From: an uncultured Nitrososphaerota archaeon
GTDB lineage: Archaea; Asgardarchaeota; Njordarchaeia; Njordarchaeales; Panguiarchaeaceae
NCBI GenBank assembly: GCA_964636085.1
Contig: CAZWPQ010000001.1
Coordinates: forward strand, 137,437 to 179,330
Direction: 5' to 3'
Length of the DNA: 41,894 nucleotides
Part shown: positions 16,559 to 41,581 of the stretch, piece by piece
How the letters are laid out: each line of letters opens with the position of its first letter
How positions within the stretch are numbered: position 1 is the stretch's first letter
The notes under the pieces: model-generated
The model's input: the letters and a program-made list of their open reading frames with translations, nothing else
The model's database searches: none
Told to the model about the DNA's origin: nothing
Translations under genes and position numbers: made by a program

Positions 16559-16607
16559 GTGATGAAGGAACGACCGGTCTGATAATGATGACAGCCTGGA
16601 GCTCTGA
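16559..16607 (+). ncRNA. Box C/D guide sRNA 1
   Basis: C GTGATGA 16559, D' CTGA 16579, C' ATGATGA 16585, D CTGA 16604; guides of 13 and 12 nt; intergenic. Confidence 0.9.
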
Positions 16608-16649
16608 TAACATTAGTTCCATTCATACTGTTAATTTATTTAGATGTAT

Positions 16650-16706
16650 ATGATGATAACCCGGCAAGCCAGAGCCTTAGGCGATGAAGAATCATAGTTA
16701 CGCTGA
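16650..16706 (+). ncRNA. Box C/D guide sRNA 2 (23S H69/H71 region)
   Basis: C ATGATGA 16650, D' CAGA 16670, C' ATGAAGA 16684, D CTGA 16703; guides complementary to the conserved CUUGCCGGGU and GUAACUAUGA. Confidence 0.9.
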
Positions 16707-16828
16707 TCCGTCTACGACATCATTTAATCCTACTGGTGTATATATACCTAGGGCACCATAATAGGATTAATATAACATTAAAAATATTCCTTTGATATCT
16801 ATATTGGAGACGATAGTATAACTTAATC

Positions 16829-16919
16829 GCCCCGGTGGTGTAGACGGCCAAGCATTCCGGCCTTTCAACAGAGAGAAGCCAGCCGGGGATCGCGGGTTCA
16901 AATCCCGCCCGGGGCACCA
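16829..16919 (+). tRNA. tRNA-Glu(UUC), 13-nt intron at 37/38 (16868-16880), encoded CCA
   Basis: Cloverleaf with GCCCCGG/CCGGGGC acceptor, CCGGC-CT-TTC-A[intron]A-GCCGG anticodon arm, TTCAAAT loop. Confidence 0.93.
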
Positions 16920-17004
16920 TAACTACAATCCTAGAGACCTCATTTACTTTAGGGTAAAGAAACCTTTAGAGTAAAAAGCATCTAGCCTATAATGGCGTTT
17001 AGTT

Positions 17005-17994
17005 ATGTTTAAATGGCTACTTGAATTCCTCGATATCGATATCAATGATGTGTTTGTCGGTAAAACGGTCAACGAGGAGATTTATGGCGGGTACATCATT
17101 TCGAGATCTTCTAGATATTACATCAATAAAGGAATCTTAGTCTACTTTAATAAACGCAATTATGCCAAATATAGAAGAATAATTATAGCCTATAGGCTCA
17201 TCCCACCTGACTTCTGGAGAGAGAATAAAAGTGATTGGTATATACACCTAAGGAAATTCCACAAAACAATTCTGTTAGAAGGGATCAAGAAATTAGACAA
17301 AACCTCCTTGAATATTCTCTCTATTGGCTGTGGGTCAGGTTGGGAAATATGGACTTTATCTAAATATCTCCAAACCCTCAGTAAGGACTATAAAATCATT
17401 GGATGCGATATTGCACTTAAACCACTACAAGTGGCTTGGAATAAAGCACGAAGACAAAAACATAATAATATTGATTTCATCTGCTGTTCCGCAGAGACAT
17501 TGCCTTTTAAGGATAATACTTTTGATTTAGTCACAGCAATTTTCGGCGCACTAGATCACTCAATCAACTATGTTAGGTCATTCATAGAGGCCGCAAGAGT
17601 TCTTAAGAGTGGTGGCATTTTTGTTGCCACTGTAATAAATAGATTTGCTCTAGAATGGATTTTAAAAGTGATACGAAACCCCAGATTGTTCATCAAGACA
17701 ATAAAATTTGCAGGGCATACCCACGCTCGAATACGAATACCACTCGGGGGGCACTATATAAGCATCCCTACGCATTTCTATAATGCTCTAGAAATCAAGC
17801 AAATATTAGATAGAGCAGGTCTGCAGAGGAAAAAATTTTTAGGCGTTTTTATAATTTTACCACTTAACTTTAAAAGAAAGAAATTTTCAAGACTGGATCA
17901 ACTACTATCCAAAATCGATAAACATTGTTGGAACATCCCAATACTCAACTATCTTGGGAGATACATTGGGATCATCGCGCAGAAGGTTTCCTAA
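17005..17994 (+). CDS. Class I SAM-dependent methyltransferase
   Basis: ILSIGCGSG, GCDIA, AETLPFKDNTFD, RVLKSGG. Confidence 0.9.
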   Translation: MFKWLLEFLDIDINDVFVGKTVNEEIYGGYIISRSSRYYINKGILVYFNKRNYAKYRRIIIAYRLIPPDFWRENKSDWYIHLRKFHKTILLEGIKKLDKTSLNILSIGCGSGWEIWTLSKYLQTLSKDYKIIGCDIALKPLQVAWNKARRQKHNNIDFICCSAETLPFKDNTFDLVTAIFGALDHSINYVRSFIEAARVLKSGGIFVATVINRFALEWILKVIRNPRLFIKTIKFAGHTHARIRIPLGGHYISIPTHFYNALEIKQILDRAGLQRKKFLGVFIILPLNFKRKKFSRLDQLLSKIDKHCWNIPILNYLGRYIGIIAQKVS

Positions 17995-17998
17995 TTAA

Positions 17999-38895: not shown

Positions 38896-39243
38896 CGTAA
38901 CCCCGAGTGCCTTCTGTAGCAGATGTTCTAGCTCATCTAATTGCCTAAATTTTGGCTCCTTTATATCTGGTAAAAATAAAAATGCTGGGATTACTCCGCC
39001 TCTCCCTTTAATTTTTTCCCTAAGTAATTTTGTTGATTCGACAAATCGTTCTGGTAATATTATTAAGGCATATTCTTCCTCCCTGCTCTCTACGATCTTC
39101 TCTAGCGCCTTTATGGCGTCTTCATCATTATTAGTAATTAGTTGATCGAAACCAACTATGGAAAATGCATACGCTAGTATCTCGTCCCTAGTTGTGCCAA
39201 CAAAGATGGCACGAAGACTTCTCTCACTAGACATATAACTCAA
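38875..39243 (-). CDS. atpF: A/V-type ATP synthase subunit F
   Basis: AF..VG, YALII..ER, P....LP, L.KALGV. Confidence 0.8.
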   Translation of the reverse strand: MSYMSSERSLRAIFVGTTRDEILAYAFSIVGFDQLITNNDEDAIKALEKIVESREEEYALIILPERFVESTKLLREKIKGRGGVIPAFLFLPDIKEPKFRQLDELEHLLQKALGVTLKIVEK

Positions 39244-40613
39244 CTCAAGTACTTCTCAAGGAATCTATCAACCACATCCCTTAGAGTTATTTCTGAGACT
39301 TCAACTAGCTCATATTTGACCCTAATTATGGGCTTATTAGGTTCTAGATTATACAACTTAAATACTCTATTTAGATCAATAGGTGTGCCCGATACTACCA
39401 CATCCGCATCCACAGAATTAATGACGTCTAATAACACTTTTATTTGTTTTTCATCATAACCAATGGTAGGCAGCATTTTCTTAAGGTGGGGATACTTGAG
39501 ATACATGCTGTATAATTCTGTATTCTTTGGAATATATCTTGTAGGATCGACTATCTCCACTGCATTGTATAGCTTGGCTGCAACATAGCCTGCCGCAAAT
39601 TCTGCACCCCCATGAGTTACAGTGGGTCCGTCCTCTACAACCAAGACTTTTTTACCTCTTATCGCGTCTGGATCCCCAACCTGAATTCTCGATTCTGCCA
39701 ATATTATATCAGCACGCTTGTTTACTCTCTTTACATTGTCAATTATTTTTTTCCAATTTTCAAATGGGGCAACACCAATTTTGTTTATTATAACAACATC
39801 ACAAAACCTTATGTTTACACTTCCAGGATAGAAGTTCAGTTCGTGACCTGGCCTCAAAGCATCAGCCACCGTTATCATCAAGTCTGGTTTTATAAAGGGA
39901 AAATCATTGTTGCCACCATCCCATAGTATGACATCAGATACTTTTTCCGCCTCTTCTAGGATCCTTTTGTAGTCGACTCCTGACCATACCTCAAATCCTT
40001 GCACTAGATAGGGCTCAAATTCCTCCAGTTCCTCAATAGACAGTTCATTACTTTTTAATTTTTCAAGGGCATCTTCTATGCCCCTAAAATGCTCAACCGC
40101 CTTCTTCGCTAGATCCTCTGCATATGGCATAGGATGCCTAATTATGCCAACACTAATATTTTTCTCCTTGAATAGCCTTACAAGTTTCCTCGAAACAGAA
40201 GATTTCCCCGCACCCGTTCGAACTGCTGTTACTGCTATAACTGGTTTTTTGCTTTCAAGCATAGTATCCTTCGGACCCAATAACATGAAGGATGCCCCAT
40301 TTGCTAGAGCTAGTGATGCCTTGTCCATAACCTCTTTAAAACTCAAATCTGAGTATGACAACACTACTAAATCAACATTCTCCTTCTTGATCAACTCTGA
40401 CAAGTACTCCTCAGGATACATTGGTATACCGTTAGGATAAAACTCGCCCGCAAGCTCGGGGGGGTATATCCTTTTCTCTATACCAGGTATCTGAGCTTGA
40501 GTAAAAGCGACAACCTCATAGTCAGGATTATCTCTAAAAACAACATTAAAATTGTGGAAGTCCCTCCCAGCCGCACCCATTATTACAACTTTTTTCCTCC
40601 TCCCAGACAACAT
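39240..40613 (-). CDS. COG2403 P-loop protein (predicted GTPase / cyclic 2,3-diphosphoglycerate synthetase-like)
   Basis: MGAAGRDFHNFN, RTGAGKS, RHPMPY, WDGGNND, EDGPT.THGG. Confidence 0.88.
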   Translation of the reverse strand: MLSGRRKKVVIMGAAGRDFHNFNVVFRDNPDYEVVAFTQAQIPGIEKRIYPPELAGEFYPNGIPMYPEEYLSELIKKENVDLVVLSYSDLSFKEVMDKASLALANGASFMLLGPKDTMLESKKPVIAVTAVRTGAGKSSVSRKLVRLFKEKNISVGIIRHPMPYAEDLAKKAVEHFRGIEDALEKLKSNELSIEELEEFEPYLVQGFEVWSGVDYKRILEEAEKVSDVILWDGGNNDFPFIKPDLMITVADALRPGHELNFYPGSVNIRFCDVVIINKIGVAPFENWKKIIDNVKRVNKRADIILAESRIQVGDPDAIRGKKVLVVEDGPTVTHGGAEFAAGYVAAKLYNAVEIVDPTRYIPKNTELYSMYLKYPHLKKMLPTIGYDEKQIKVLLDVINSVDADVVVSGTPIDLNRVFKLYNLEPNKPIIRVKYELVEVSEITLRDVVDRFLEKYLS

Positions 40614-40712
40614 TCATCACCCAAAAGTATTGTTTAATACATAGATAAAAGTACTGTGAAAATATATCTTCAATAATAATGCCCACCTAAAAATCCTCTT
40701 GAGTGAAAAACA

Positions 40713-41333
40713 ATGTATACGAATTGCATCCTCAAACCATATCCACCACGCTGCTACTTGCTATTACTAAGGGACTGCCAAATAATAGTAAACCCAAACA
40801 ATACAGAAATCATAGAAGAAATAACAAGCAATACAAATAAACCAATCACCACAATCATTCTAAACGAAAACCTATCCAGCCTCGCACCCAGAATCTACCA
40901 ATACACACACCTAATAATCCCACACTCCCTATGTAAAAGCGACGACATACCAACATACCCACTGGAGCAAGAAATACCCATAACAAGAAACACCAGTATC
41001 TACCTAATATACCCACCAACAATAGAAAACAAAAGAAACTACTACTCCCTAATCCAGACAAAAACACTAAACATCCTAATATCGACTAGACTAACACACA
41101 TAGAGACACCACCCATCGTAGACATCCTACTAACATACGAAGAAGTATACAACAACGCACAAAAATACATAAAAAACAAACTAGAACTCCCAAAATACCT
41201 CGGATCAGACGCATACTGGTGCTTCATACTAGGAAAAAAAGACAAAACAGACGACAAATACATACACATAAGAAACAAAGAGTATATAATCCAAAGACAC
41301 CTATCAGAAATAACAGTAATAGAAAACAAGTAA
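40713..41333 (+). CDS. Hypothetical protein (possibly degenerate metallo-beta-lactamase-like fold)
   Basis: 206-aa ORF; CYLL...IIVNP and THLIIPH echo an MBL N-terminus without the HxHxD motif; strong base skew. Confidence 0.5.
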   Translation: MYTNCILKPYPPRCYLLLLRDCQIIVNPNNTEIIEEITSNTNKPITTIILNENLSSLAPRIYQYTHLIIPHSLCKSDDIPTYPLEQEIPITRNTSIYLIYPPTIENKRNYYSLIQTKTLNILISTRLTHIETPPIVDILLTYEEVYNNAQKYIKNKLELPKYLGSDAYWCFILGKKDKTDDKYIHIRNKEYIIQRHLSEITVIENK

Positions 41334-41338
41334 AACAA

Positions 41339-41432
41339 TGGCGCCCCGGGCGGGAATCGAACCCGCATCTCGGGCTTGACTGGCCCAACAAACAATGACA
41401 GGCCCACATGCTAGCCACTACACCACCGGGGC
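41339..41432 (-). tRNA. tRNA-Asp(GUC), 19-nt intron best placed at 34/35 (41380-41398), encoded CCA
   Basis: GCCCCGG/CCGGGGC acceptor, G73; bulge-helix-bulge with a GGCC/GGCC helix. Confidence 0.9.
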
Positions 41433-41531
41433 ACCGTCAAACATACCACTAATAGATAACACACCAAATATTAATTTTTAATTCATATACCATTTAAAAA
41501 CAACACACCAAATTCTACCAAAGACAAAAGA

Positions 41532-41581
41532 TCAGAGTGGTGCACGCTCATCACTAATCAGAGCAGGTCAAGATTCATCAG
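41532..41581 (-). ncRNA. Box C/D guide sRNA 4 (16S h34)
   Basis: Minus strand CTGATGA-ATCTTGACCTGCT-CTGA-TTA-GTGATGA-GCGTGCACCACT-CTGA. Confidence 0.9.

Follow-up and report, generated by a model that had tools for sequence, protein, structure and literature searches.

In the yeast Saccharomyces cerevisiae, the 2′-O-methylated (Nm) ribosomal RNA (rRNA) nucleotides Am2256, Gm2288, Gm1428, Gm1271, Gm1126 and Cm1639 are guided by the small nucleolar RNAs (snoRNAs) snR63, snR75, snR56, snR40, snR41 and snR70, respectively (PMC5199042; PMC2794176), which are six separate, longer RNAs, none of them pairing two of these sites, that work with Nop56/Nop58/Snu13 and have human and plant counterparts. 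Among archaea, the small RNA (sRNA) sR91 of Ignicoccus hospitalis, phylum Thermoproteota (PMC4644070, Additional file 1), carries a D′ guide TAACTCGGCAAGC followed by CCGA for G1945 of the large subunit (LSU) rRNA and a D guide ATCAGAGTTACG followed by CTGA for A1913, while Methanopyrus kandleri sR32 and Nanoarchaeum equitans sR25 carry the guide TTCAGCCTTG for G902 in helix 27 of the small subunit (SSU) rRNA, and the D guide of Pyrobaculum calidifontis sR32 targets SSU 1197 (Escherichia coli numbering is used for archaeal targets throughout). Here we analyzed a stretch of 41,894 nt (the window), the final 41.9 kb of a contig (C1) from a 2.4 Mb, 83% complete metagenome-assembled genome (MAG; G000), which contains four canonical box C/D sRNAs (s1 to s4). 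All six of their guides that could be placed on rRNA point exactly at nucleotides methylated in yeast, and all of these sites also have counterparts in archaea outside the Asgard group.

Four box C/D sRNAs and their described relatives

The boxes of s1 to s4 were read directly from the sequence and are listed in Table 1 with the guides and the neighboring RNA features. Box C (RUGAUGA) and box D (CUGA) were found in all four sRNAs, with every D box reading CTGA, and the internal D′ and C′ boxes were also present, being canonical in s1 and s4. The spacers are about 12 nt in length, with those of s2 being 13 and 15 nt, and the total lengths are about 50–60 nt. A box-based scan of the whole genome returned 55 configurations against five in a reversed-sequence decoy, corresponding to 48 loci of which about 30 are credible, and s1 showed no box mismatch at all; the same scan of a second genome of the genus (G001) returned 62 configurations against three in the decoy. 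The four C/D sRNAs claimed in the original prediction are thus borne out by their boxes and by the excess over decoys. The genome also encodes the partner proteins, namely fibrillarin (318 bits), a Nop domain protein (Nop5, 226 bits) and two L7Ae paralogues.

Table 1. Box C/D sRNAs, their rRNA guides and neighboring RNA features in the window, with the pairing of each guide to the rRNA of the same-genus genome G001.
Feature	Position	Strand	Boxes, target or description	Pairing and position in G001 rRNA
s1, box C/D sRNA	16557..16608	+	C GTGATGA 16559-16565; D′ CTGA 16579-16582; C′ TGATGA 16586-16591; D CTGA 16604-16607	
s2, helix 69/helix 71 double guide	16648..16708	+	C ATGATGA 16650-16656; D′ CAGA 16670-16673; C′ CGATGA 16682-16687; D CTGA 16703-16706	
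s2 D′ guide TAACCCGGCAAGC	16657..16669	+	LSU G1945 = yeast Gm2288	11 Watson-Crick; LSU 2072
s2 D guide ATCATAGTTACG	16691..16702	+	LSU A1913 (helix 69 loop) = yeast Am2256	10 Watson-Crick; LSU 2040
s3, double guide	30693..30748	-	C ATGATGA 30744-30738; D′ GTGA 30725-30722; C′ TGATCG 30716-30711; D CTGA 30698-30695	
s3 D′ guide TTTCAGCCTTGT	30726..30737	-	SSU G902 (helix 27) = yeast Gm1126	11 Watson-Crick + 1 G:U; SSU 861
s3 D guide GCGATGGGCAGT	30699..30710	-	probable target SSU C1402 (decoding center) = yeast Cm1639	SSU 1364 (see text)
s4, helix-34 double guide	41530..41583	-	C CTGATGA 41581-41575; D′ CTGA 41561-41558; C′ TGATGA 41553-41548; D CTGA 41535-41532	
s4 D′ guide ATCTTGACCTGCT	41562..41574	-	SSU 1197 = yeast Gm1428	8 Watson-Crick + 2 G:U; SSU 1160
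s4 D guide GCGTGCACCACT	41536..41547	-	SSU 1051 = yeast Gm1271	10 Watson-Crick + 1 G:U; SSU 1004
Intron-containing tRNA	16829..16919	+	120 nt downstream of s2; tRNA-Glu(UUC) with a 13-nt intron by intron-aware ARAGORN	
Intron-containing tRNA	41339..41432	-	about 100 nt downstream of s4	
LSU rRNA 3′ end	41655..41894	-	Rfam RF02540, 193 bits; cut by contig end	

The s2 RNA agrees with sR91 of I. hospitalis in the order and register of its guides and in a D′ spacer of 13 nt and, with G1945 guided at D′ and A1913 at D in one RNA, belongs to the helix 69/helix 71 double-guide family of which sR91 is the type. The two differ in the internal loop, which is longer in sR91, in the terminal stem, which is GC-rich there, and in the guide letters, which in sR91 follow its own rRNA (helix 69 CUCUGA versus CUAUGA). 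The closest relatives of s4 are helix-34 double guides detected in Thermoproteota genomes (L249–L258), which pair a D′ guide AACTGACCTGCT followed by CTGA, for 1197, with a D guide CATGCACCTCT followed by CTGA, for 1051; their internal loop is about 22 nt against four in s4, and they again follow their own rRNA (GGAGGUG versus GGUGGUG). The P. calidifontis sR32 shares with s4 the 1197 guide, there at D rather than D′, with a different second guide, and M. kandleri sR32 and N. equitans sR25 share the register of the s3 D′ guide but have a different partner guide. The yeast snoRNAs use the same ribonucleoprotein chemistry and the same rule of methylation opposite the fifth guide position (N+5), in longer RNAs than the compact double guides of the window, and they are compared here by target identity, boxes and guides only. 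The sRNAs s2 to s4 are new members of known guide families, and their mechanism is not new.

Membership of s1 to s4 in curated Rfam C/D families was also considered and rejected. A permissive scan gave sub-threshold C/D matches at all four loci, with a likeness that comes mostly from the boxes, and the gathering thresholds of sR20, sR17, sR19, sR12 and snoPyro_CD were not reached by any window sRNA (best scores against gathering of 29.8 vs. 44, 26.7 vs. 36, 22.2 vs. 45 and 21.7 vs. 38 bits). Such scores are expected because these families are defined at the species level.

Guide targets and overlap with yeast methylation sites

The end of the contig cuts the LSU rRNA gene within its 3′ end, and the resulting 240-nt fragment (91% identical to the LSU of G001) is the sole rRNA found in the source genome with SSU and LSU models. 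Since its own rRNA is unassembled, the 16S and 23S rRNAs of G001 were used as a proxy. Regarding the identity of the source, the nearest named relatives of its fibrillarin are Candidatus Njordarchaeota MAGs (63–79% identity), which the NCBI taxonomy places in the kingdom Promethearchaeati (Asgard), and the big contig of G001 belongs to a hot-spring MAG deposited as "Crenarchaeota archaeon". Judged from these sequences, the source genome is a member of Njordarchaeales and hence Asgard, as had been supposed.

Guides were mapped by the N+5 rule on the proxy rRNA, followed by alignment to E. coli K-12 rRNA numbering. Guide scores ≤9.0 were as frequent on reversed-rRNA decoys as in the real data and were not trusted, so only scores ≥9.5 were counted; the guides for 1197 and 1402 fell outside this cut-off and were added on separate evidence. 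Complementarity of at least 9 nt with a paired fifth position was observed for six of the eight window guides on same-genus rRNA (Table 1). Both s1 guides are orphans, with no convincing target in the proxy rRNA, the genome or its tRNAs. The D guide of s3 is conserved in the genus, and in genome G002 it has a C for a T, turning a wobble into a G-C pair, while the G001 orthologue of the s4 D′ guide forms nine Watson-Crick pairs and one G:U on its own 16S rRNA.

The yeast reference was obtained from S. cerevisiae rDNA found in metagenome contigs via a D2-region motif (oligonucleotide table, PMC5199042); its 18S (1800 nt) and 25S (3396 nt) rRNAs placed 55 of 55 yeast Nm sites on the correct nucleotide. 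On this reference, all six placed window guides lie exactly on yeast Nm sites, and a search for off-by-one mappings by flanks and by three-way alignment found none among them. The context of A1913 is identical to yeast over 25 nt, with the second s2 target, G1945, lying 32 nt away. The five positions that the original prediction had given (LSU 1913 and 1945; SSU 902, 1051 and 1197) were reproduced to the nucleotide, and its tally of five in five grows to six in six with the addition of C1402. All six sites are near-fully methylated in yeast (PMC5199042), and for five of them the methylation also exists in human and plants and, for the most part, in algae (PMC11542601 Table 2; PMC2794176).

The overlap extends beyond the window. 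Counting as confident those guides whose 10-nt core is perfect or nearly so, 20 sites were obtained for the source genome on the proxy and 15 for G001 on its own rRNA, giving a union of 23, of which five coincide with yeast Nm sites against 0.29 expected (P = 8e-6). These five comprise the four strongest window sites and G2251, which corresponds to yeast Gm2619. With the two weaker window guides included, seven of 25 sites are on yeast sites against about 0.3 expected (P = 1.5e-8). One further genus site, E. coli 2068, coincides with the plant Um2411. The original prediction had cautioned that guides can only be placed in conserved regions, which are enriched for modifications; restricting the count to positions with at least 11/13 identity to yeast leaves four of nine on yeast sites where 0.32 would be expected (P = 1e-4), so this concern narrows the sample but does not remove the overlap. 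The overlap with the yeast sites is genuine, not random, and chance is excluded.

Two observations on the rRNAs of the genus were made alongside. Two sRNAs of the source genome (C7:78167-78215 and C9:57756-57806, both on the plus strand) carry guides perfectly complementary to the 16S 3′ end GGAUCACCUCC, targeting E. coli 1532/1533 in the anti-Shine-Dalgarno region, and the same two sRNAs occur in G001. The rRNA locus of G001 (L007, C11:390761-396110) has no classical 16S-23S operon, the LSU (+) and SSU (-) genes being convergent with 830 nt between them and a tRNA inside the gap. Its SSU reads CACTCACTGCCCGCCGCCGCAC at about E. coli 1392–1410, where nearly all life has CACACACCGCCCGTCACACC; the changes sit in the universally conserved decoding-center strand and include the U1406 position, where a U would suit the s3 D guides of the genus better than the C in the assembly.

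Counterparts in other archaea and the origin of the overlap

All seven yeast-coincident genus sites have a counterpart in non-Asgard archaea, mostly in the form of predicted guides. By searching the supplement of Dennis et al. 2015 (PMC4644070) with guide strings, guides were found for G902 (M. kandleri sR32 and N. equitans sR25) and A1913 (Sulfolobus acidocaldarius sR113), and G2251 is predicted in three species in the same work and methylated in Haloarcula marismortui (PMC11542601 Table 1), while C1402 corresponds to Pyrococcus abyssi Cm1369 (PMC11542601 Table 2). The s4-type double guide, with 1197 at D′ and 1051 at D, was detected in at least 10 of 121 Thermoproteota genomes, in two of which the guides matched the genome's own 16S at exactly those nucleotides, the 16S context being read from pattern matches. 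Both A1913 and G1945 are targeted by sR91, and the s2-type double guide was found in two of the 151 genomes of the Thermoproteota sample.

Within Asgard, the G001 orthologues of s2, s3 and s4 keep their guides and match the rRNA of G001 itself, and a partly similar sRNA was found for s1. Orthologues of s2 occur in G001–G004, and its double-guide pattern was detected in 26 of 151 Asgard-phylum genomes against one control match, with several families positive in all or almost all of their members, among them a Hodarchaeota family (6/7), plus one Heimdall chromosome. In three of these genomes (G020, G049 and G052), the s2-type RNAs use lineage-specific guide letters to pair with A1913 and G1945 of their own LSU. 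A single-guide pattern for A1913 was tried and replaced by the double-guide patterns, as it was noisy in AT-rich genomes (64 matches against about 48 in the control). Orthologues of s3 were found in four of the five genomes of the genus and in one other Njordarchaeales family. A literature search turned up no publication dealing with the targets of Asgard C/D guides.

From these results, s1 to s4 are very probably ordinary archaeal box C/D sRNAs, with s2 to s4 belonging to old guide families directed at a core of sites that is itself ancient. Each would fold into C/D and C′/D′ kink-turns and bind L7Ae, Nop5 and fibrillarin, the 10–12 nt upstream of box D or D′ would pair with nascent rRNA, and fibrillarin would methylate the 2′-OH of the rRNA nucleotide facing guide position five. 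In this way s2 would act on the helix 69 loop and helix 71, s4 on the two strands of helix 34, and s3 on helix 27 and probably on the helix 44 decoding site. The guide families would be common to Asgard archaea and Thermoproteota, with a small core of sites retained although the repertoire is modest, at about 30 sRNAs, and the core would have been present in the archaeal lineage ancestral to eukaryotes before or at the divergence of Asgard and TACK (Thaumarchaeota, Aigarchaeota, Crenarchaeota and Korarchaeota), and would not be an Asgard invention. Inheritance of the core from the archaeal ancestor of eukaryotes is the most economical reading, and common descent is plausible. The core is functionally central, comprising the decoding region of helices 27, 34 and 44, the helix 69/71 bridge and the P loop, and the joining by double guides of rRNA segments that are close in structure is in line with the chaperone idea (Dennis 2015).

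Several points weigh against this reading. About 70% of the placed genus guides are off yeast sites, for example at the typical archaeal site E. coli C2606, and two confident guides lie one nucleotide away from a eukaryotic site: E. coli 514 (guide at C3:48667-48713, minus strand) adjoins yeast Gm562 at E. coli 515, and E. coli 2509 (C6:27369-27418, minus strand) adjoins human Cm4456 and plant Cm2880. The s3 D guide forms 10 Watson-Crick pairs and one G:U on the G001 SSU but also has one mismatch, the targets in the source genome are assigned on same-genus proxy rRNA, and the expression of the four sRNAs and the methylation of their target nucleotides are predictions from sequence. The s3 guide pair (G902 and C1402) is confined to Njordarchaeales and, among 101–121 Asgard genomes, s4 to this genus; such a patchy distribution would also fit transfer between thermophiles or repeated invention. 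Convergence is also made plausible by the fast turnover of guides described for archaea (Dennis 2015; Lui 2018, cited in PMC7994747).

Pure convergence, in which 2′-O-methylation was repeatedly selected at hot spots such as the decoding center, bridge B2a and the P loop and the guides arose independently, is possible but in our judgment doubtful. It would account for the patchy phyletic distribution and for hot spots in helices 27, 34 and 68–71 across seven archaea that share only 17% of sites between species (PMC4644070), and bacteria methylate C1402 and G2251 by protein enzymes (PMC11542601). Neighboring-nucleotide variants point the same way, with M. kandleri sR120 and I. hospitalis sR310 targeting 1050 and not 1051, and guides for 1195 present in P. 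calidifontis and in the source genome. However, Asgard and Thermoproteota have whole double-guide RNAs in common, down to guide order, register and box layout, which argues for homology at least within Archaea, and the exact-nucleotide overlap persists even at the most conserved positions. A more far-reaching form of common descent, advanced here tentatively and with more doubt than confidence, is that a core of at least seven sites (SSU 902, 1051, 1197 and 1402; LSU 1913, 1945 and 2251) predates the Asgard/TACK split and passed to eukaryotes, that at least two double guides, those for helix 69/71 and helix 34, are equally old and were split into single-guide snoRNAs in eukaryotes (snR63 and snR75, and snR56 and snR40, respectively), and that thermophilic Njordarchaeales keep this core almost intact in one conserved neighborhood of about 25 kb.

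The original prediction had proposed direct ancestry of part of the eukaryotic snoRNA target map in Asgard archaea, in other words an inheritance specific to the Asgard-to-eukaryote line, with Asgard guide sets nearer to the eukaryotic map than those of other archaea. We consider this improbable. The s2 double guide is indeed common in Asgard, Hodarchaeota and Heimdall genomes included, and rare in the Thermoproteota sample, and the overlap of the genus with yeast (22–28%) exceeds the roughly 6% (six of ≤92 guides; P = 0.006 to 0.04) derived from the literature for P. abyssi with sites from PMC11542601 Table 2 and 46 sRNAs from PMC7994747, a biased count, as Table 2 is confined to sites that plants also have. 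However, a comparator passed through the same pipeline, the Thermoproteota genome G299 (1.19/1.39 Mb, 86%), was statistically indistinguishable from the genus (1/7 versus 5/23, P = 1.0), a comparison left powerless by the degenerate boxes of G299, which gave only seven confident guides; its apparent s2-like D′ guide is ambiguous, and a 0.8 Mb Acidilobus MAG (G041) gave no canonical box C/D matches in the scan. No RNA of the s4 or s3 type was found in any of the Asgard genomes searched outside Njordarchaeales, and since each of the seven sites is also a guide target or a methylated nucleotide outside Asgard, the evidence at the level of sites speaks against an Asgard signature and the Asgard-specific claim fails on comparison with other archaea. 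That the sRNAs are artefacts, chance box-like motifs or chance complementarities, is extremely improbable and strongly disfavored: although they are known here from sequence alone, reach no Rfam family at gathering score and were mapped with a measure whose lower scores are as frequent in decoys, the at least ten-fold excess of box configurations, the five guides with perfect 10-nt cores and the conservation seen at genus and phylum level, where the guide letters follow the rRNA of each lineage, all stand against it.

A 2024 cross-kingdom table gives no archaeal counterpart for Gm1271, Gm1428, Am2256 and Gm2288 (PMC11542601 Table 2). These four sites now have predicted guide-RNA counterparts in both Asgard and Thermoproteota, in addition to Gm1126, Cm1639 and Gm2619, so that more eukaryotic methylation sites can be followed back to archaeal guides. 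The question thereby shifts from "Asgard or not" to which sites constitute the archaeal core inherited by the first eukaryotes.

Gene neighborhood of the guides

The s2, s3 and s4 genes lie within about 25 kb (window 16648-41583) in a neighborhood that adjoins the LSU rRNA gene in the source genome and is kept in G001 (C19:71276-95211) and G004 (C176:23978-48393). The window holds six of the seven yeast-coincident guides of its genome (P = 4e-5). The s1 and s2 genes are in tandem upstream of an intron-containing tRNA gene, which is possibly co-transcribed with them. The s3 gene starts 18 nt past the stop codon of an Sm-like (LSM domain) gene (30766-30999, minus strand) on the same strand and is convergent with trm1 (29463-30680, plus strand), encoding the Trm1 tRNA m2,2G methyltransferase; s3 may be processed from the 3′ untranslated region of the LSM mRNA. 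The s4 gene is located 72 nt downstream of the LSU rRNA 3′ end.

Elsewhere in the window, another intron-containing tRNA was found at 33084-33168 on the minus strand, directly followed by a sub-threshold Rfam match to transfer-messenger RNA (tmRNA) at 33171-33275; this stretch is probably not a tmRNA but a second tRNA with an intron. Outside the window, the Nop5 and fibrillarin genes of the source genome lie about 1.9 kb apart (L098, C11:705-3986), and the gap between them contains the G2251-guiding C/D sRNA (C11:1536-1585, minus strand), a xylose-isomerase-like TIM-barrel gene and an open reading frame of 157 aa with a just-sub-threshold Pfam match to ARPC4, a subunit of Arp2/3 (21.1 vs. 22.2 bits).

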